64,000 nt of DNA from Spirochaetota bacterium (GTDB taxonomy: Bacteria; Spirochaetota; Brachyspiria; Brachyspirales; JACRPF01): NCBI GenBank assembly GCA_038043445.1, contig JBBTBY010000027.1:56153-120152 (forward strand), in the 5' to 3' direction. How positions within the stretch are numbered: the stretch's first letter is position 1; each line of letters starts with the position of its first letter. Below, in pieces: positions 5,087 to 49,045 of this stretch. A program made the translations under genes and the position numbers. The notes beneath the pieces were generated by a model. It did no database searches and was not told the DNA's origin. It saw only the letters and a list, made by a program, of their open reading frames with translations.

Positions 5087-7210
5087 TCAGCGGGGGGTGA
5101 GATTGACGTTCGAGTACGTCGCACCGGTTATCGATTTAAGGGCTTCGAGTGCAAGCACGCGTACTCCCCATATTTCCTTCGCGTTATAGAGGTATTTCTC
5201 AAGCGGTTTTACCGCGCGGTAATCGCGCAGACGCCCGAGCGCATCGATGACGATCATCTTTTCCTGGTCGTCCTTCGCTGCGGCGAGCAGGGGTTCGAGC
5301 ACGGGGTAGATGCGCGGGTCGTTTATATACCCGATGCCGTCGATGACGGCCGCGCGTTTATCCGGCGGCGAATTGAGCAGGTTCGTGAGGATGGCGATAT
5401 CAAGGTCGGGTACATCGGCCAAGCGCCCTATCCAGCGTGTTGCGTGATAGATATCCTCGTGGTCGTAGTAGAATTCGAACGCCTTGACGGCGAAGGTACT
5501 GTCCGGGGTACCCATACGGAACGCGTGTATGAGCGCTTTGTCGGCCCGTTCAATGGCATTAGTGACAGAAGGAGAGAGCGTCGCCCGCCGGTCATCGGCA
5601 ACGGATTCAAGACGCAGATACGCGCGTGAAAGGTCGGCGTACGCGCGGGACGCAATACCCGAACGGCCGCCCAACAGTACCGTATCGATGAAGGACCGCA
5701 GAGGATTCTCCTTCTTTTTCTGGGGCATCAATGGCGGGGGGGCCGGCTGCGAGACCGGAGGCGGGACGGGGCGTTTCTGCTCCCGCATTTTCGGCGTCGG
5801 AAAGGGTATCGCGGTCAAGAAATTCTCGACATAGAAATGCAGTGCCGCTTTATCGGTCAGGGTCCGGATGAGCCCCTCTGCAGCGCGCGCTGCGGTTTCC
5901 GAGCGGACGTCCTCCGGTATGCGATCTGAGACCGCGTCGAAGGAGAGGACGTATGCCCCGCGAAGCGGGACGGCTATGGTCGCACCGCGCGGGTCGATAT
6001 ATCGTTCGCGCTTTTTTGCTTCATAGAAATCCCTGAGCGCCGCAGGGCCGACATCGGCGGACATGCGGGCATTGCTCGCTACGGAGGCGATGAGCGTATC
6101 CGCGAGCACACGGTCATGGATGGCGTATCGTTCATGCCGCACCGACGGATGATTATCTATCCAAAGACCGGCATAATGGCGCATGATGACGGCACGTGAT
6201 ACTTCCTGCTCGATGAGCGCGCACTGCATTATCCAATTGGTCGAAGCGGCCTGGTATTCCATCTTCTGCATATCCGTTGCGTTCTCCGGAGGACGTACGG
6301 ATGAAAGAAGAGCGATGAATTCGCCGTAGGTGAACGTGTAGTCACGGTACTGCGCGAGTACCGCGTTCGAAGCCGGCGATGAAGCGAGGATGCCGTATGA
6401 GCGGCGTATGTCGTTCGCGCGGATGAGGCGCTGTTCCTGCGACCGTATCATCCAGCCGATCTTCTGCGCACGGTATTGCTCTCGTCCGTAGCTGTCGTTC
6501 TTTATCGATTGAAGGACCTTCGGGTCACGCTTCTGCTTTCCATACAGTATGAGCGCCATGTAGCCGAACGAGGCATCGATGAGGCGTATCTCTCCTTCTT
6601 TCATCGATGCGATCATCGGGGCGATCTCGGGGTCGAAGCTGTAATAATCGCGCGTTTCGACCATCGGGAATATGCGCCAGTCAGCGGGAAGGGGGCCGGC
6701 AGCGCCGATGTTCGATACGCCGTGCGCGCGCATGTTCGATATTAACGTCAGCATCCCGCGCTTGGCCTTCGCCCGCATATCCGCCGGGAGATAGAACGCG
6801 ACGGGCGCGAAAACGGCGCCGGTGGAATAGCCGACAGCAAGACGGTCGAAGTCCGATCCGGTGAGCCTGACACGGGGCGTTACGATCGCTGACTGATAGA
6901 CCGAACGTTTGAGCGATCCGATCTCCCTGATAAGGGCGTTCCTGAACTGAGGCGACTTGTCGATGCCGCGCGCTTGTGCCTCTTTCACCATGAGCCGCCG
7001 TTCGACGAGCATGCGTATCTCGTTCTTCTGCGCTTCCATATTGCCGACGATGGAGGCTTGACGGGACTCATCGTACGTACGCATCGCTTCCTTGAGGTCG
7101 CTCCTGCGTATCTCGCCGCCATGATATGCCGCTACCGGATTGCGGTCGCTGCAGCCGGTCATGATGAGGGACAGGGTAAGGAGCGCCAGCGGTATCGTCA
7201 TGGTTTTCAT
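5087..7210 (-). CDS. Lipoprotein with SurA-N/PpiC-like region and C-terminal HEAT repeats
   Basis: 707 aa. Lipobox 'LIMTGCSD'. N-terminal chaperone-like region. Pro-rich linker 'PVPPPVSQPAPPPLMP'. C-terminal HEAT-like repeats ('DPRIYPVLEPLLAAAKDDQEKMIVIDALGRL...'). Confidence 0.5.
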   Translation of the reverse strand: MKTMTIPLALLTLSLIMTGCSDRNPVAAYHGGEIRRSDLKEAMRTYDESRQASIVGNMEAQKNEIRMLVERRLMVKEAQARGIDKSPQFRNALIREIGSLKRSVYQSAIVTPRVRLTGSDFDRLAVGYSTGAVFAPVAFYLPADMRAKAKRGMLTLISNMRAHGVSNIGAAGPLPADWRIFPMVETRDYYSFDPEIAPMIASMKEGEIRLIDASFGYMALILYGKQKRDPKVLQSIKNDSYGREQYRAQKIGWMIRSQEQRLIRANDIRRSYGILASSPASNAVLAQYRDYTFTYGEFIALLSSVRPPENATDMQKMEYQAASTNWIMQCALIEQEVSRAVIMRHYAGLWIDNHPSVRHERYAIHDRVLADTLIASVASNARMSADVGPAALRDFYEAKKRERYIDPRGATIAVPLRGAYVLSFDAVSDRIPEDVRSETAARAAEGLIRTLTDKAALHFYVENFLTAIPFPTPKMREQKRPVPPPVSQPAPPPLMPQKKKENPLRSFIDTVLLGGRSGIASRAYADLSRAYLRLESVADDRRATLSPSVTNAIERADKALIHAFRMGTPDSTFAVKAFEFYYDHEDIYHATRWIGRLADVPDLDIAILTNLLNSPPDKRAAVIDGIGYINDPRIYPVLEPLLAAAKDDQEKMIVIDALGRLRDYRAVKPLEKYLYNAKEIWGVRVLALEALKSITGATYSNVNLTPR

Positions 7211-17167: not shown

Positions 17168-17248
17168 ACCCCTATCCCCGCCTCTTTCCACCCGTGGCGG
17201 CTTTGCCGTCAGCTGCGCCAAAGGCGCACGTCTGAGAAGGGAAAGGGG
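17168..17248 (+). repeat. Left inverted repeat (IR-L) flanking the TA cassette
   Basis: ~81 nt starting 'acccctatcccc...ccacccgtggcgg...gctgcgccaaaggcgcacgtctgagaagggaaagggg'. It matches the reverse complement of 18592-18675 with roughly 5 mismatches and 2 indels. Confidence 0.8.
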
Positions 17249-17354
17249 AGAGTAACCCCGATACACGCGACTCTATAAATTTTGTTGTAGAATAATATGA
17301 TTGGTATATACTACGGGCATAGATTGCGAATAGTTTTTTACGCGAGGACGCTCG

Positions 17355-17525
17355 ATGCAGAATTTGCTCAACGAATTGACAGCATTGCTCTCCAAAGATG
17401 AACGCCTCGCGGCAGACGGCAAACTCCTCAAGAATAAAGTCATAGAGCTCGCACTAGGAATGGACGCCGATTATAAGGTTTCGGGAGCGGATAAGAAATT
17501 GAATAAGTTTTTTTACACAAAATAG
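17355..17525 (+). pseudogene. 56-aa ORF resembling the N-terminus of type III / type IIG R-M Mod-like methyltransferases (probable gene fragment)
   Basis: 'MQNLLNELTALLSKDERLAADGKLLKNKVIELALGMDADYKVSGADKKLNKFFYTK'. My recollection is that Mod N-termini look like '...LLEKDERL...GVLLKNKIVELALKLD...'. It lies in an AT-rich stretch and lacks the rest of the gene. Confidence 0.3.
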
Positions 17526-17540
17526 CGGAAGGAGGCTTTT

Positions 17541-17786
17541 ATGCGCTTGACCATCAACATCCCCGACAGCGCCTTTTCAAGCATATGGGTAACGCCGGAA
17601 GAATATGTGAAAGAGATGGAAAAAGCTGCGACAGTAAAATGGTATGAGATGCGGAAGATCACGCAGGACAAGGCCGCCGAAATATGCGGGGTGACCCGCG
17701 CCGAGTTCATTAAAGTCTTAAGTGAGTATAAAGTTTCAGTGCTACAGGACGACGAGACCTCTTTGCATGAGGAATTGGATGAGTAA
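17541..17786 (+). CDS. UPF0175 family antitoxin-like protein
   Basis: 81 aa, partner of the downstream DUF3368 gene. GGAGG RBS. It overlaps the toxin start by 8 nt (ATGAGTAA). Confidence 0.65.
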   Translation: MRLTINIPDSAFSSIWVTPEEYVKEMEKAATVKWYEMRKITQDKAAEICGVTRAEFIKVLSEYKVSVLQDDETSLHEELDE

Positions 17787-18258
17787 CGAGATCGTCCTCA
17801 ATGCCTCGCCGATAATACTCTTTTCCAAAACGGGGTATTTTCATGTTCTGCGGAAATTGTTCGATAAAATGTATATTCCGCGTGTCGTGGTGCAGGAAAT
17901 AGCCGTCGATGCTTCGAATGAAACAGCAACTGTATTGAAAGAAGACGGCATTGTCGTGCATTGCAACACGCAGAATAATGATAAAGTTATTTCATGGGAT
18001 CTCGGTATTGGAGAAACCGGCGTAATTTCGTTTGCTTTGGCGAATCCCGCCGTTCGTCCTGTGCTGGGTGACGCGGAAGCGAAGGCGTGCTGCCTGTCAT
18101 TGGGGATCAAACCACTCGGTACCGGATCGGTATTGATCCTGGCGAAACGTGCCGGGCTGTTACCGTCCGTAAAAACGGTGCTGCTTGAGATGCGTTCGAA
18201 GGGAATGTGGATCTCGGATGCGGTTGTCGATTCTATTTCCTCAAAAGCGGGGGGATAA
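17779..18258 (+). CDS. DUF3368 (PIN-like) putative toxin / nucleic-acid-binding protein
   Basis: 'MSNEIVLNASPIILFSKTGYFHVLRKLFDKMYIPRVVVQEI' fits the DUF3368 N-terminus. This is a canonical UPF0175/DUF3368 pair. Confidence 0.65.
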   Translation: MSNEIVLNASPIILFSKTGYFHVLRKLFDKMYIPRVVVQEIAVDASNETATVLKEDGIVVHCNTQNNDKVISWDLGIGETGVISFALANPAVRPVLGDAEAKACCLSLGIKPLGTGSVLILAKRAGLLPSVKTVLLEMRSKGMWISDAVVDSISSKAGG

Positions 18259-18428
18259 TGCCTCAAACTCTTGAACAGGAGATAACGACCTGTGTAAGGC
18301 ACGAAAAGTCATTGCCCGAAACGCCGAAACATATCCGCGACAATCTCAATTCTGCCTTTGATCTCAGACCGTATCAGCACGAAGCGTTCGGGCGTTGTCT
18401 GCGGCATGTGTTCCACTGCGAAGTGTGA
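18258..18428 (+). pseudogene. N-terminal fragment of an SF2 helicase / ResIII-like restriction subunit
   Basis: 56 aa ending '...NSAFDLRPYQHEAFGRCL'; 'LRPYQxEA' is an SF2 motif. It is followed by a stop with no helicase body, and its TAATG start overlaps the toxin stop. Confidence 0.3.
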
Positions 18429-18591
18429 ACACGCCGCTGTAGCGGGTTTTTTATCCTGCGCAATGAAGAATTGACCCGCTGCAGGGAAGAAATCGACCGC
18501 TGTAACAAGCAAATGGTTCGCATCACACAGCAACAATGGTCATTCAGAATAATACATTATTTACGATACATTCTATGTTCAAAACAAGCGA

Positions 18592-18675
18592 GCCCCTTTC
18601 CCTTCCTAGACGTGCGCCTTTGGCGCAGCTGGCGGCAATGCCGCCACGGGTGGAAAGGGGCCGGGGGATAGGGGT
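18592..18675 (-). repeat. Right inverted repeat (IR-R) flanking the TA cassette
   Basis: Reverse complement aligns to 17168-17248 at ~90% identity by eye. It abuts the stop of the DUF327 gene. Confidence 0.8.
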
Positions 18676-20230: not shown

Positions 20231-20305
20231 GTGTTTTCCTTACTATTGTCCTGCCATGATAGGTCAATGGGGGCTATTGTCAAGAGCGCGCTCGTGCCCG
20301 AATTA

Positions 20306-20445
20306 TCATGTAAGAAAAATGCAACCACAGAGGGAAAACGGAGAGCACAGAGAAATGCGGGTTTTTAGTTTTCACCAATCGGGTGATTTCATTTTTTATT
20401 TTTGCTCTCTGTGCTTTCTCCTGCGTTTCTCTGTGGTTTTTCCTG
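20306..20445 (+). repeat. Long-hairpin intergenic repeat, copy E1
   Basis: 'TCATGTAAGAAAAATGCAACCACAGAG...CACAGAGAAATGCGGG...GCTCTCTGTG...CTCTGTGGTTTTTCC'. The arms are complementary, and its sequence and architecture are shared with E2 (33394-33547) and E3 (35712-35837). Confidence 0.7.
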
Positions 20446-20474
20446 ATTTATATGATGCGCTGGGGCGTGCGCGG

Positions 20475-21314
20475 CTACAGATCCCACACCGAATGCGTGA
20501 GAATACCCTCTCCCGGCTTGCATTCCCCCGTTTTTTTGCAGAGGAGGGTAATCCCCTCGCGGAGACCCACCGGAAGCATGTCGTTGAGCCTGCTCCGGAA
20601 TCCTGATGCTGGTATCTTGTAGTAACGATCGCCTACCGTGCGGAACGGCTCTTTCCGGCCGTAATCATAGCCGTCCGCGTACACGACAGAAAGCCCGTAA
20701 TGGCCGATCACTTCACGGAGCGCACCGTACGTGAACACCGATTTGTGATCGGGGACGATGCCGAACACGCCGTTCGTGTCCTCGAGAAAGCGGTTGCCGG
20801 CGCGGTAGCGTATCGAAGGGAAATAGTTCATGAGCGAAAGACCGAAGGCGAGGAACACACGATTATAAATGCACGCGAGGTTGGGCGTCGTGATGTACAC
20901 ATACCCGCCCGGTGCGAGCGCCCTTGACGCGGATGCTATTACACCGTCCGGGTTATACACATGCTCGAGCAGTTCGCCGAGGATGATAAGATCGAATTTG
21001 TCCTTCGTCTTGAAATCGGATGCGTCGCCTTTCAGGAACGGCTTGTAGCCGTGAAGCTCCTTGGGCGATGCATTCAGTATCGTCACCGTCGATGACGGGA
21101 GCGTTGCCGAGAACCAGCGTCCGGTGCCTTTGTTGCCGCCGACATCGAGCACCTTTTTCGGCATGGCGTGCATCGAGCGCATAGCGCGGAGAAATTGCAG
21201 GAATCGCTTTTTTGCCGAGATATGCGTGTGACCGCCAGTCTCACAGTCGGCGAGGAATACCAGTTCCGCATCCGTATCGACGCGTGCGTTGCGCGTGTCC
21301 CATGTCATTTTCAT
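20475..21314 (-). CDS. Class I SAM-dependent methyltransferase
   Basis: 'VLDVGGNKGTG' motif I and 'LIILGELLEHV' motif; 279 aa. Confidence 0.65.
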   Translation of the reverse strand: MKMTWDTRNARVDTDAELVFLADCETGGHTHISAKKRFLQFLRAMRSMHAMPKKVLDVGGNKGTGRWFSATLPSSTVTILNASPKELHGYKPFLKGDASDFKTKDKFDLIILGELLEHVYNPDGVIASASRALAPGGYVYITTPNLACIYNRVFLAFGLSLMNYFPSIRYRAGNRFLEDTNGVFGIVPDHKSVFTYGALREVIGHYGLSVVYADGYDYGRKEPFRTVGDRYYKIPASGFRSRLNDMLPVGLREGITLLCKKTGECKPGEGILTHSVWDL

Positions 21315-32435: not shown

Positions 32436-33380
32436 ATGGAACTGCGTGACAGGATATTCGTTGCCGGACACACCGGCATGGCGGGGAAGGCGCTCGTGCG
32501 CCGTCTTTCGGCGGAGGGGTATACATCGATAATTACGCGTACGCGCAGCGAGCTCGACCTTGTCGATACAGCATCCGTGCGTGCGTTCTTTGCCGCGGAG
32601 CGCATCGGCCATGTGTTCCTCGCGGCGGCCAAGGTGGGCGGCATTTTCGCTAATTCCACGAAGCCGGTGGAATTCCTCTACGACAATCTCATGATTCAGA
32701 ACAATGTGATACGCTCCGCGTTCGAGAACGGCGTGAAGAAGCTCTGCTTCCTGAGTTCATCGTGCGTGTACCCGCGCCAATGCGAACAGCCGATGAAAGA
32801 GGAATATCTTCTCACCGGACCGCTTGAGCCGACGAACGAGGGCTATGCGCTCGCAAAAATTGCCGGGATGAAATTCGTCGAATACTATCGGCGCGAATAC
32901 GGGAAGAGCGGCATATCGATAGTGCCCTGCAATCTCTACGGCACGGGCGATCATTTCGATCTCGCCTCCGCGCATGTGCTCTCATCGCTCGTGAAGAGGT
33001 TCGTCGATGCCCTCGATGAGAAGGCCGCCTCGGTCACCGTATGGGGAAGCGGCACGGCACGGCGCGAGTTCATGCATGTCGATGACGCGGCGCGCGCCTG
33101 TCTTTTTCTCATGCAGCACTATGACGGCGATGTGCCGGTCAACTGCGGCTGGGGAACGGATGTGAGCATCCGCGAGCTCGCCGAGACGGTACGTACCGCG
33201 GTCGGTTTTGCCGGCGCGATAGAATGGGACACATCGAAACCCGACGGCATGCCGCGCAAATGCGTGGATACTGCTCGCATGGACGCGCTCGGCTTCCGGC
33301 CTGAGATAACGCTTGCCGAGGGGATACGCCGCACCGTTGAGGAATATCGCGCGCTGAAAAAAGCCGGTGCGGTGCAATAA
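32436..33380 (+). CDS. fcl: GDP-L-fucose synthase (GDP-4-keto-6-deoxymannose 3,5-epimerase/4-reductase)
   Basis: Near-colinear match to E. coli Fcl: 'RIFVAGHTGMAGKAL', 'LAAAKVGGIFAN', 'SSCVYP', 'PTNEGYALAKIAG', 'KPDGMPRK'. Confidence 0.9.
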   Translation: MELRDRIFVAGHTGMAGKALVRRLSAEGYTSIITRTRSELDLVDTASVRAFFAAERIGHVFLAAAKVGGIFANSTKPVEFLYDNLMIQNNVIRSAFENGVKKLCFLSSSCVYPRQCEQPMKEEYLLTGPLEPTNEGYALAKIAGMKFVEYYRREYGKSGISIVPCNLYGTGDHFDLASAHVLSSLVKRFVDALDEKAASVTVWGSGTARREFMHVDDAARACLFLMQHYDGDVPVNCGWGTDVSIRELAETVRTAVGFAGAIEWDTSKPDGMPRKCVDTARMDALGFRPEITLAEGIRRTVEEYRALKKAGAVQ

Positions 33381-33393
33381 CGCATCCAGATCC

Positions 33394-33547
33394 TCATGTA
33401 AGAAAAATACGACCACAGAGATGCACAGAGAAGATGCAGGAGAACACAGAGAAATAGCGGGTATTGGTTTTCGCCCAACGGATGATCTCTATTTTCTCTT
33501 TCGTGTTCTCTCGGGCTTTTCTCGGTGAGCTGTGGTTTTCTTTGTCC
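33394..33547 (+). repeat. Long-hairpin intergenic repeat, copy E2
   Basis: 'TCATGTAAGAAAAATACGACCACAGAG...CACAGAGAAATAGCGGG...GAGCTGTGGTTTTCTTTGTCC'. It begins 14 nt after the fcl stop. Confidence 0.7.
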
Positions 33548-33575
33548 TTTTGTGATTAACGGGGGAGCGAAGCGC

Positions 33576-33604
33576 TATACAGGGACAGAAAACTGTGTTA
33601 TAAT
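33576..33604 (+). promoter_or_regulatory. Candidate extended -10 promoter (TGtTATAAT) for the HMGL-like gene
   Basis: TGT TATAAT at 33596-33604. The -35 is weak. Confidence 0.3.
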
Positions 33605-35629: not shown

Positions 35630-35711
35630 CTCGCATCGACTAAGCACTTCCTGTGCAACAGTTCATCTTCGAGACTCTGCTCTTCCGATCATATTAATGC
35701 TTCCGGGTGCT

Positions 35712-35837
35712 AATGGAAGAAAGCAAGATAGGAAAACCACGAAACACACGAAAATCGCGAAATGGGAGGAGAGATCCGCTCTCCAATTCTCTTGCTTTTT
35801 TCGTGTCTTTCGCGATTTTCGTGGTTTGTTTTTCCCC
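35712..35837 (+). repeat. Long-hairpin intergenic repeat, copy E3 (divergent)
   Basis: 'AATGGAAGAAAGCAAGATAGGAAAACCACGAAACACACGAAAATCGCGAAATGGG...TTTCGCGATTTTCGTGGTTTGTTTTTCCCC'. Same architecture as E1/E2 with CACGAAA/TTTCGTG arms. Confidence 0.55.
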
Positions 35838-35960
35838 ACCTTCATGATCATGGTTATTTATCTCCCGCAAGGTTCAGCCCGTTCCCCACAACGGTCAAAG
35901 CATTCTCCGATATGGTATTGTTTGTATAGTTCATACCTTTCCTGTGATGGGGGAAAAGAA

Positions 35961-38246: not shown

Positions 38247-38442
38247 CCTCAAAAAAAATGGCAAAAAAGCAAAGACGTTAAAACCTGGGAGGTCACGGCT
38301 TTACTTTTTTGCACTACCGACATAATGCAGCTACATCTTGTTTAGGGAGGAAGATATAACTGCAACCTGCATACCTAGTATAACAAATCCGGCAGCGTAT
38401 GTCAATAGCGGAATTCGCCGCCGTCTGCCCGCGGAAAACGCC

Positions 38443-45494: not shown

Positions 45495-46547
45495 ATGAGC
45501 AACGCAGTGATGCGCGGAATGAGTTTCGGATTTCTCGCGAAACGGGATTATTTCAGGAGCAGGGAAGGGCTGGCACAGCCGGCAAAAATGGCCGATCTGG
45601 GAATAGACTGGGTGGCGCTTAATATCACCGTAATTCAGAAGACCGTGTTCGATACGCGTATGTATCAGGATTACGAATATTCTCCCGACGACCGCGAGCT
45701 TGAGGGCATTGTCCGGGAATTCCAAAAGCGCAAGATAAAGGTCATGCTGAAACCGATGATAGAATGTCTTGACGGCGCATGGCGCGGCTCCATCATCATG
45801 CCCGAAGCCCCGGGTCTTATCGAGGGGCGAAAGACCGATTACCGAGGGTCTTGGTTCGAATCGCTCACACACTCGCTCACGCATTTCGGGAGGCTCGGCA
45901 CCGAGCTTGGCTGCGAAATGTTCTGTCTCGGCTGTGAACTTGACGGAGTGGAAAAACTAAACAGTTACTGGTCACCGGTCGTCGATGCGGTACGCGAAGT
46001 GTACAAAGGGGCGCTGAGCTATGATACGACGCTTTGGGCGCTCGATAAAGGCGCTCCGAAATGGTTCGATCAATTGGATAATGTGCAGGTGAGCTTTTAT
46101 CCGTGCCTCGGGGATACATCGCATCTCCCGGGGACGGGGACGAAAATGCTCGACAGGAGCGATCGCTCGCCGGAAAGCGTTGCGGAAATGACGAAGAATC
46201 TCGCTAAGCGTGTGAGCGAAATGCGCGCGCTCGCGGAGAAGGTCGGCAAACCCCTCGTGTTCGGTGAATGCGGCTGCCGCTCACGCGCCGGTGCCTGCGG
46301 GAACCCCGCTGACTGGCGCCTGCCCGGAGTGTACGACGGCGAGGAACAGGCGAAATTTTTCGATGCCGTGCTCGGTTCGTTCTGGGACGAGTCGTGGTGG
46401 CAGGGCCTCTTTGTCTGGAAATGGGATGAGCAGCAGCTTCGCGCGCACTATCGAACCGATACGAGGGGAGATATGGGGTTCATCGTTGACGGGAAACCGG
46501 CGGCTGAGACGCTTAAGCGCTGGTATACGCGGACAGATAGACGATGA
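45495..46547 (+). CDS. Uncharacterized GH-A-clan-like TIM-barrel hydrolase, paralog A
   Basis: Colinear with 48032..49045: 'MLKPMIECLDG', 'GCEMFCLGCELD', 'VYKG', 'GKPLVFGECGCRS.AGA', 'YDGEEQAKFF', 'WKWDEQ', 'DGKPAAE'. Putative acid/base in xELD and nucleophile in ECG. Confidence 0.45.
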   Translation: MSNAVMRGMSFGFLAKRDYFRSREGLAQPAKMADLGIDWVALNITVIQKTVFDTRMYQDYEYSPDDRELEGIVREFQKRKIKVMLKPMIECLDGAWRGSIIMPEAPGLIEGRKTDYRGSWFESLTHSLTHFGRLGTELGCEMFCLGCELDGVEKLNSYWSPVVDAVREVYKGALSYDTTLWALDKGAPKWFDQLDNVQVSFYPCLGDTSHLPGTGTKMLDRSDRSPESVAEMTKNLAKRVSEMRALAEKVGKPLVFGECGCRSRAGACGNPADWRLPGVYDGEEQAKFFDAVLGSFWDESWWQGLFVWKWDEQQLRAHYRTDTRGDMGFIVDGKPAAETLKRWYTRTDRR

Positions 46548-48031: not shown

Positions 48032-49045
48032 ATGGAAATGGCTGTCGAAAAACATCGCGGTATGACATTCGGGTATTATGCCCGCAACGGATATTATTCC
48101 TCCGCGAAGGCGCGTGAGGATGTGGACAGGATGGCAGCGCTCAATATCGGCTGGGTATGCGTTGTCGCTATCGTACTGCAGGATACGTTCGCAAGCACGA
48201 GGCAATATCGCGATTTCAAGATGACGCCCGCGGATGACGAGCTGCGCGATATCATCGACTACATACACAAAAAAGGAATGAAGGTGCAGCTTCGCCCCAT
48301 GCTCGAATGCTGGGACGGGACGCAGCGACTTGCGATACGTTTCCCGCGAGAGGAGACGATAATCCCCGGCAAGCCCATTACGCATTGGAGCCAGTGGTTC
48401 GCAAGCATGACCGAGCGTACGCTTCATTATGCTTCGGTCGCGTCGCGCGCCGGCTGTGAGGCATACGGGCTTGACAGCGAGCTCGATCATACCGTCGGCC
48501 AGAACCAGTATTGGAAGAACGTCGTTGCTGCGGCACGGAGCGTGTACAAAGGACATATCACGAGCGGCCATACGAGCGTGGTGAAATTCCCCGATGAACT
48601 CAAGAACAAGGACCATTGGTTCTACGATCTCGATTCACTCGGCACGAGCTTCTATACGGGCGTGGCCGACAAACCCGGTGCAACGCTCGATGAAATGCGT
48701 GCGCATCTGAAGCCATCGCTCGATCATTTCCGTCAGGTCGCATCATGGTACGGCAAGCCGTTCTATTTCGCCGAATGCGGCTGCTGTTCCACCGCAGGTG
48801 CCACGATGCGTCCGGCGTATTGGAAGACCGAGGGCGGATACGACGGCGAAGAGCAGGCGCGTTTCCTCGAAGCGGTACTCGATACGTTCTGGAACGAGCC
48901 GTGGTGGATGGGCATGTACTGGTGGAAATGGGACGAGCAGAACGACAGGCCGTGGTTCCGCGATGATCCTCGCGGCGATAAAGGATTCACCATCGACGGG
49001 AAACCGGCCGCAGAAGTCATGAAGAAATGGTATGGGAAAAAATAG
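48032..49045 (+). CDS. Uncharacterized GH-A-clan-like TIM-barrel hydrolase, paralog B
   Basis: See paralog A: 'LRPMLECWDG', 'GCEAYGLDSELD', 'GKPFYFAECGCCSTAGA', 'YDGEEQARFL', 'WKWDEQ', 'DGKPAAE'. Confidence 0.45.
   Translation: MEMAVEKHRGMTFGYYARNGYYSSAKAREDVDRMAALNIGWVCVVAIVLQDTFASTRQYRDFKMTPADDELRDIIDYIHKKGMKVQLRPMLECWDGTQRLAIRFPREETIIPGKPITHWSQWFASMTERTLHYASVASRAGCEAYGLDSELDHTVGQNQYWKNVVAAARSVYKGHITSGHTSVVKFPDELKNKDHWFYDLDSLGTSFYTGVADKPGATLDEMRAHLKPSLDHFRQVASWYGKPFYFAECGCCSTAGATMRPAYWKTEGGYDGEEQARFLEAVLDTFWNEPWWMGMYWWKWDEQNDRPWFRDDPRGDKGFTIDGKPAAEVMKKWYGKK

Follow-up and report, generated by a model that had tools for sequence, protein, structure and literature searches.

The stretch of DNA considered here, referred to as the window, comprises 64,000 nucleotides (nt) of contig JBBTBY010000027.1 from an uncultivated Spirochaetota bacterium of Hainich groundwater. 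It carries four copies of a long palindromic repeat, termed E0, E1, E2, and E3, the first of which is cut by the left edge of the window. A preliminary description of this DNA had placed three long hairpins in it, and all three are indeed present, with boundaries refined to those given for E1, E2, and E3 in the following list.

1-38, no strand assigned: right arm of E0, CCGTGACCTCGGTGGTTTTATTTTCTTACGTGATC; the whole copy is found at 2843-2950 of the overlapping contig L235
20256-20283, minus strand: promoter-like site of the LPG-synthase gene (20230-19133), TTGACA-16-TATCAT
20285-20474, no strand assigned: segment missing in a related genome, corresponding to E1 plus a copy-specific outer GC-rich stem
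20305-20456, plus strand: E1 proper, with ATCATGTAAGAAAAATGCA, ACCACAGAG, two more units, a loop region, the complementary CTCTGTG units, and GTGGTTTTTCC...ATATGAT
20357-20403, plus strand: apical region of E1/E2, GCGGGT..GTTTTCACCAATCGGGTGATTTC, where a small hairpin precedes a T run
33394-33556, plus strand: E2, with one CACAGAG unit more than E1 and a decayed right arm
33576-33604, plus strand: promoter-like site of the HMGL-like gene (start 33639), TATACA-17-TATAAT (with TG)
35711-35847, no strand assigned: E3, of the CACGAAA flavour, with TAATGGAAG...AAAACCACGAAACACACGAAAATCGCGAAA, the loop hairpin GGAGAGatccgCTCTCC, and TTTCGTGTCTTTCGCGATTTTCGTGGTTTGTTTTTCC...CTTCATGA

All four copies lie downstream of gene ends; E0, E1, and E2 are each placed after a stop codon and ahead of the promoter that follows. 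E0 starts 19 nt past an ADH_zinc_N stop codon, upstream of an MR_MLE gene (100-1248). E1 occupies the spacer between a methyltransferase stop codon (20475-20477) and the promoter-like site of the LPG-synthase gene, both genes being on the minus strand; E2 starts 14 nt past the stop codon of the GDP-L-fucose synthase gene (33378-33380); and E3 is flanked by convergent genes, one for a glyoxalase (end 35471) and one for a peptidase_A24-like protein (end 35961). Since E1 stands between two minus-strand genes, it is inverted with respect to E2 relative to local transcription: judged from its asymmetric loop, E1 runs antisense to the genes on either side, and E2 runs sense, so the common orientation first ascribed to the copies does not hold.

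E1, E2, and E3 each fold into a single long imperfect hairpin on either strand, with minimum free energies of -48.1, -51.9, and -48.6 kcal/mol, respectively, on the plus strand and of -44.4, -42.4, and -51.4 kcal/mol on the minus strand, and with z-scores of -3.3 to -6.3 against dinucleotide shuffles. The segment 20285-20474 folds over its full length (-60.7 kcal/mol, z -5.5). These three copies have 5-7 A per 8 nt on the 5' side and 5-7 T on the 3' side and present, on both strands, the hairpin followed by a U-rich tract that characterizes a bidirectional intrinsic terminator. Beyond the shared repeat, copy-specific outer GC-rich stems were seen at E1 (20285-20305 with 20457-20474) and at E0 (2828-2842 with 2951-2960 of L235). 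The idea that the repeat inserts into pre-existing hairpins was dropped because the complementarity of the outer flanks across the family is not above that of mismatched controls.

E1 and E2 are, as had been suspected, closely related: they are 80% identical (z = 12 against shuffles) and have in common a 27-nt left end, identical at 25 of the 27 positions, and a central block. When an nhmmer profile of the four copies (alignment of 202 columns) is built without the copy being tested, it recovers E0 (E = 4.5e-9), E1 (E = 7e-12), and E2 (E = 4e-8). The similarity is due neither to chance nor to conserved gene ends. The corresponding profile misses E3 (E = 4), so what E3 shares is the architecture, namely ACCAC...GTGGT ends, three units per arm, and A and T tracts, homology in sequence not being shown. 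In the window, the exact ACCACAGAG occurs inside E1 and E2 and nowhere else; the four-copy profile found no fifth copy in the window plus 13 kb of flanks (4 copies in ~77 kb) and zero copies in 41 kb from relatives.

E1 and E2 are the only copies between which the apical region 20357-20403 is conserved, and the loop common to these two copies finds chance matches at most in viral contigs and JGI metagenomes. The ATGTAA of E1 and E2, once singled out as a minimal start-stop, belongs to an imperfect inverted repeat at the termini (ATCATGTAAG...ATGAT) and is not conserved in E0 or E3. Two Logan contigs from independent short-read assemblies of the same organism (L002 and L004) stop in the E2 loop, at ~33466-33471, which indicates that the hairpin breaks assembly.

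Gain, loss, and orientation of copies

In a related Spirochaetota genome with the same gene order (80-82% amino-acid identity), the E1 and E2 sites are both empty. The spacer between the methyltransferase and LPG-synthase genes measures 53 nt there versus 244 nt in the window, and that between the GDP-L-fucose synthase gene (fcl) and the HMGL-like gene measures 93 nt versus 259 nt. At the E1 site of the relative, the stop codon TAG is directly followed by the conserved CTTGACA -35 box; the promoter-like site 20256-20283, which is kept in this genome, marks the downstream limit of the insertion, and the site 33576-33604 is likewise kept where E2 is missing. The absence of both copies from the syntenic relative means that each is a discrete insertion or deletion.

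A third empty site was found in Bacteroidota, where a copy between gmd and fcl, 9 nt past the stop codon and 23 nt ahead of the next start, is present in two Bacteroides species (B. finegoldii and B. ovatus) and missing in Phocaeicola massiliensis (L112 1490-1580, L113 1498-1566, and L363 330-460). This copy is flipped between the two Bacteroides species, with the flanks the same way round: 62 of 68 positions are identical when one copy is taken as the reverse complement versus 52 of 68 in direct comparison.

No strand of the repeat is favoured. In co-directional contexts, 10 of 19 copies fold more stably on the sense strand, the mismatches in the stems are balanced (G-U 55 versus A-C 48), and single arms divide 58 versus 48 with respect to the neighbouring coding strand among the viral loci listed and 11 versus 11 in genomes, as judged from crude calls of open reading frames (ORFs). 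Strand selection at the RNA level was therefore dropped, there being no bias in fold stability, in mismatches, or in the strand of single arms. The lack of strand bias, the unconserved loop, and the flipped Bacteroides copy point either to a constraint on the palindrome itself or to a concerted evolution of its arms, and not to a strand-specific RNA; on the reading preferred here, the constraint acts on the palindrome, at the DNA level or independently of orientation, and not on one transcribed strand.

Anatomy and distribution of the repeat family

The consensus of the family runs from an A-rich tract through tt(a/c/g), ACCACAGAG, 1-2 nt, and CAC(A/G)GAG (2-4 units in total) to a loop of 4 to ~200 nt, after which the 3' half consists of the exact complement, GTGGT, (t/g)aa, and a T-rich tract. 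In more general terms, an arm is made of (t)tta-ACCRC and of 2-4 purine-rich units, RRCAC(AGAG/GGAG/GAAG/GAAA), with a period of 8-9 nt, and the other arm is complementary to it unit for unit and spacer for spacer. A superfamily was defined by an A/T-rich leader, ACCRC, at least two RRCAC+RRAR units, a loop, and an exact complementary arm ending in GYGGT and a T-rich tract. E0, E1, and E2 belong to it with AGAG/GGAG units and E3 with GAAA units, and the same anatomy is found again in loci of genomes, plasmids, and viruses. Clean copies form a perfect palindrome with no conserved bulges, and a T-rich tract lies 3' of the hairpin in 18 of 29 copies versus 8% at random positions.

The arms do covary, covariation having been put forward as a check on the hairpin. 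The basal 33 nt of both arms from 27 non-redundant copies were joined by an artificial loop and compared with 500 shuffles. Paired cells amount to 85.8% versus 77.2% in the shuffled sets, a percentage that is inflated because only copies with 19 or more of 24 positions paired had been chosen. Changes on both sides were counted in 88 cells versus 37.5 +/- 5.1, and the covariation score is 0.271 versus 0.123, with none of the 500 shuffles reaching the observed values; sliding the partners by 1-3 columns gives a far lower covariation score. Moreover, wherever a copy has a 1-nt instead of a 2-nt spacer in its left arm, the right arm matches it.

The units occur in several flavours, which were counted, by the last four bases of the unit, as triple arrays in 3 Mb of family loci:

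GAAG: 161 triple arrays
AGAG: 133 triple arrays
GAAA: 40 triple arrays
GGAG: 32 triple arrays
AGAT: 10 triple arrays
GGAT: 7 triple arrays
GGAA: 6 triple arrays
AAAG: 5 triple arrays

In almost every example shown, the array starts with ACC(A/G)C or with a sequence that differs from it by one base. With its CACGAAA units, E3 is thus better assigned to a sister flavour within this superfamily than regarded as the drifted copy of E1 and E2 that it had been taken for.

The CACAGAG module is also seen nested in lineage-specific palindromes. In a metagenome-assembled genome (MAG) of the Chitinophagales (L016, L032, and L058), the outer layer is CTAGATGCTCGGTCGAAAACCCC...TCTAG, and in Nostoc (L026, L040, L071, L081, and L083), it is GGACTTACGCA...TGCGTAAATCC. 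Small ORFs of the GxxExxY type (PD-(D/E)XK) lie between a CACAGAG left arm and the complementary right arm at L076 (~5950-6400) and L078 (3414-3996), where the stem would enclose a whole mRNA; such cargo was found in only 2 of ~70 copies.

Further copies, on which the preliminary description had made its proposal depend, exist in the form of E0 and of very many in other genomes. A scan with the pattern AAGAAAAATNNNACCACAGAG of one genome per GTDB species gave 99 loci against ~17 expected by arithmetic for uniform base composition. In 57 of the 99 loci (58 matches), further CAC(A/G)GAG units come after ACCACAGAG, and 38 have the complementary arm CTCTGTGGT within 700 nt. As labelled in their records, the carriers include Chloroflexota, Armatimonadota, Desantisbacteria, and Bacteroidota (Spirosoma, Pedobacter, Chitinophagales, and Rikenellaceae); Planctomycetota, Verrucomicrobiota, Chlamydiota, Nostoc, Calothrix, Acidobacteriota, Nitrospirota, and 'Deltaproteobacteria'; Pelomonas, Comamonadaceae, Omnitrophota, WOR-3, Ignavibacteria, and Treponema; and, among the archaea, ANME-1 / 'Methanobacteriota', two genomes of which share the position of the array, ahead of orthologous genes. 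Nearly identical sequence is found in Bacteroides, Nostoc, Planctomycetota, Chlamydiota, Spirochaetota, ANME-1 archaea, and phage contigs. Records of a plasmid collection also hold copies (Bacteroides and Gemmatirosa), which are unannotated, as between gmd and the GDP-fucose synthase gene. No copy was found in 5,426 E. coli genomes.

In viral contigs, there are at least 120 loci with ACCACAGAGNNCACRGAGNNCAC and at least 120 with the E3-like pattern ACCACGAAR..CACGAAR..CRCGAA, which have the same anatomy. Hairpins make up ~20% of the ACCACAGAGNNCACRGAGNNCAC matches listed. Among the matches listed, an ORF begins 26-142 nt downstream of 82 of the 113 arm-only arrays, and for 33 of 141 arrays there is a start codon in frame 0 at most 15 nt upstream, from which M..TTEDTE N-termini would result. 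Arrays that either encode putative N-terminal peptides (MKITTEDTEDTE..., or, in a terminase-like ORF, TTKNTKDTK) or stand directly before start codons were seen at L116, L155, L117, L246, and other viral loci; L117 is a Mu-like phage contig, with PHROG hits of the MuA/MuB type.

As expected from the preliminary description, the repeat matches no RNA family of Rfam 15: at the gathering threshold, there is no hit in the window and only tRNAs in 15 loci with canonical copies, and permissive scans yield only sub-threshold look-alikes of miRNA precursors. The repeat family was found in no catalogue or paper, and literature outside that searched may already describe it. A primer for the polymerase chain reaction (AACTCTGTGTTCTCTGTGGTG, upstream of BF2782) in a paper on the capsule loci of B. 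fragilis falls in a copy, which places the element in that species; the repeat is not discussed in the paper (PMC3090145).

Interpretation and alternatives

With moderate confidence, E0-E3 are read here as a non-autonomous palindromic DNA repeat of the miniature inverted-repeat transposable element (MITE) or repetitive extragenic palindromic (REP) kind, which is gained as units after stop codons and doubles as a bidirectional terminator-like hairpin. Discrete copies would be gained in intergenic space just downstream of stop codons; transcription from either side would then produce a hairpin of 25-60 bp with an A-rich tract before it and a U-rich tract after it; and each copy in place would most likely work in both directions, as a hairpin that resembles a terminator or protects 3' ends, and would insulate neighbouring transcription units, an action suggested by the long stem and its flanking A and U tracts. 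Mobility would be the mode of spread, and horizontal gene transfer, possibly by phage, would be the cause of the distribution.

The kinship with MITEs is apparent in several respects. The copies are palindromic over their full length (108-190 nt), have no element-specific ORF, and are present or absent at conserved sites, which bears out the earlier view of a dispersed palindromic non-coding intergenic element. They resemble the Correia/NEMIS elements of Neisseria, ERIC/IRU of enterobacteria, Nezha of cyanobacteria, and Chunjie of Geobacter, which are dispersed, intergenic, non-coding imperfect palindromes of 70-190 nt whose presence differs between related genomes. MITEs can be transcribed along with adjacent genes and form RNA hairpins, and some, such as Correia and ERIC, are terminators or processing sites. 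Unlike MITEs, the repeat has arms made of phased 8-9 nt units in several flavours, no target-site duplication was recognised at E0-E3, no parent transposon was found in the 8-kb flanks of the 99 loci, and the heptamer-array module spans many phyla, archaea, and phages, whereas the known MITE families are, to our knowledge, restricted to single genera or families. A sequence relation to the MITE families named was not noticed, although no formal comparison was made.

With REP/BIME elements and REPINs, the repeat shares the character of an extragenic palindrome, often just past a stop codon, that tolerates either orientation and whose arms evolve in concert. Effects on mRNA 3'-end stability and on termination have been reported for REP/BIME elements. 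REPs are single palindromes of 20-40 nt with a conserved GTAG-type head and a flanking RAYT gene. The definition of REP, BIME, or REPIN does not fit the copies, whose arms are unit arrays of 30-60 nt that start with ACCAC and have no GTAG-type head. No RAYT-like or other gene recurs beside them in the 8-kb flanks of the 99 loci, and the family is missing from the E. coli genomes scanned. Bidirectional intrinsic terminators have the same succession of A tract, hairpin, and T tract and the same location between a stop codon and a promoter or between convergent genes; ordinary terminators, however, have stems of 5-12 bp, are specific to their locus, and form no sequence family across phyla, whereas the stems here measure 25-60 bp. 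A further likeness is to the STRR heptamer repeats and small dispersed repeats of cyanobacteria, in the heptamer scale of the building blocks and in the nesting inside other palindromes that the Nostoc and Chitinophagales loci show. The STRR units (CCCCAGT, TTGGTCA, and CAACAGT) have other sequences and form tandem arrays instead of hairpins. The phased unit arrays, the parallel flavours, and the cross-domain spread set the family apart from the repeat families known to us.

Several observations weigh against this reading of E0-E3 as a MITE/REP-kind repeat with terminator-like action. An all-against-all clustering of ORFs in the 8-kb flanks of the 99 loci revealed no recurrent transposase or other family, only ubiquitous ones such as ABC transporters and kinases coming out. 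No target-site duplication was recognised at E0-E3, the relatives, at ~80% amino-acid identity, being too diverged for exact junctions, and no direct repeat was seen beside near-identical copies in one Chitinophagales MAG. The related Spirochaetota genome has no hairpin at all at the E1 and E2 sites, which makes termination there dispensable. The copies are only weakly depleted from divergent spacers (5 of 28, from crude ORF calls), and those used for covariation had been selected, as mentioned, for good pairing. Most copies in viral contigs are single arms without a complement that abut gene starts or ends and that neither a pure terminator nor a pure MITE model explains. Finally, a near-identical sequence across domains, together with parallel flavours, points to a specific recognition partner.

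This leads to a broader and more tentative proposal, in which the copies would belong to a cross-domain 'heptamer-array' superfamily, spread horizontally over more than 15 bacterial phyla, ANME-1, plasmids, and tailed or Mu-like phages, with a dedicated recognition partner and with co-option by phages. The partner may be a sequence-specific protein family or a structure-directed insertion mechanism, the arrays co-opted by phages would be gene-start leaders or N-terminal tags, and the superfamily may be undescribed so far.

Another possibility, which we consider unlikely, is that of an element of RNA processing or stability, the stems being substrates of RNase III or barriers to 3' exonucleases that separate or stabilise cistrons and that are kept for this role rather than as selfish DNA. 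Such an element could be likened to the intercistronic RNase III sites of phage T7 and to the intervening-sequence hairpins of rRNA. Stems of 25-35 bp that are almost perfect would suit it, as would the copies between co-transcribed genes (e.g., gmd and fcl in Bacteroides), the frequent copies between phage genes, and an independence of orientation that befits a purely double-strand signal. The GxxExxY ORFs at L076 and L078 extend the likeness, since the intervening-sequence hairpins of 23S rRNA also enclose small ORFs (of the four-helix-bundle or GxxExxY type), although the copies here are not in rRNA. This explanation does not account for a conservation of sequence that goes beyond pairing and extends across phyla and to archaea, nor for the single-arm arrays, and the empty sites in relatives indicate that there is no need for such a signal.

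Somewhat less likely again is a set of phased DNA-binding sites, in which the 8-9 nt units would be subterminal sites of a transposase, a recombinase, or another protein, the flavours its specificities, and the hairpin two inverted ends. Indeed, each arm has 2-4 phased units, the flavours differ in their last four bases only and are always the same in both arms, gain and loss are discrete, and arrays are present in the Mu-like contig L117 and in many other phage contigs. The end sites of MuA carry RCGAAAR, which is seemingly similar to the CACGAAA/CACGAAG flavour, a resemblance that is a lead only. However, no such protein is linked to the copies in the 8-kb flanks, the arrays of phage contigs are scattered between genes and not at genome ends, and there are neither TG...CA termini nor a target duplication.

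It is improbable that the repeat is a module of translation, with the purine arm as a Shine-Dalgarno-like (SD-like) GGAG/GAGG string, in a 5' leader or translated, with the other arm as an anti-SD-like mask, and with the hairpins as regulators or decoys. This explanation takes up the ORF starts that follow most of the arm-only viral arrays, the in-frame arrays, and a last unit that is often CACGGAG, 5-8 nt ahead of ATG; it is at odds with the want of a clear bias of arrays to the coding strand (in the counts given above), with the GAAG and GAAA flavours, which lack the SD motif, and with the position of E1-E3 after stop codons and upstream of promoters instead of in leaders. Bacteroidota and cyanobacteria, moreover, make little use of the SD sequence.

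A gene for a small RNA or another strand-specific structured RNA, or else an attC-like recombination site of integrons, is the least probable explanation, its strong hairpin, covarying arms, wide spread, and consensus ATTTAAC...GTTAAAT (reminiscent of the attC cores RYYYAAC/GTTRRRY) being offset, for the RNA that the preliminary description had considered, by the lack of an Rfam match, fold stabilities and G-U versus A-C counts that favour neither strand, a varying orientation to transcription, a loop unconserved outside this genome, and the flipped Bacteroides copy, and, for attC, by the misfit of E1-E3 to the cores, by arms without extrahelical bases and asymmetry, and by copies that are dispersed among conserved housekeeping genes with no cassette arrays. 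The sites attC are likewise imperfect palindromes (57-141 nt) at gene 3' ends with a wide spread that extends across domains; they are recognised as folded single strands, and the taxonomic spread of the repeat overlaps that reported for integrons. Yet attC conserves structure and not sequence, with extrahelical bases, asymmetry, and cassette arrays next to intI, none of which holds for the E0-E3 loci (intI was not sought elsewhere in the genome). Membership in attC was rejected: E1 has ATGCAAC / GTTTTTC and E2 ATACGAC / GTTTTCT, and AAC stands at the left end in about half of the family.

For the window alone, the significance is modest: four insertions at gene ends that are probably terminator-like insulators. 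Should the family indeed be uncatalogued, it would rank with the most widespread interspersed repeats of prokaryotes known to us. Such a repeat interrupts assemblies from short reads (E2 is where two contigs end), gives rise to spurious ORFs and to false N- or C-terminal extensions (TTEDTE and TTKDTK peptides), and can be confused with small RNAs or terminators. The strict match of flavour between the two arms resembles a recognition code, and identification of the partner could reveal a new mechanism of mobilisation or of RNA/DNA recognition and provide a tracer of phage-mediated gene flow between phyla.

Other repeats in the window

Three other repeated structures were seen in the window. 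A hairpin at 38261-38312 is unrelated in sequence to E0-E3, and so are two inverted repeats of 73 nt each (17176-17248 and 18593-18665), which are 92% complementary and 1344 nt apart. The latter bracket an ORF with a DUF3368 domain and a small overlapping ORF upstream of it (ORFs 17541-17786 and 17722-18258), and the region 17176-18665 looks like a cassette of the toxin-antitoxin type bounded by long inverted repeats. Direct repeats at 46244-46433 and 48751-48940, with 73-76% identity and 2507 nt apart, lie in neighbouring ORFs, which are probably paralogous genes.

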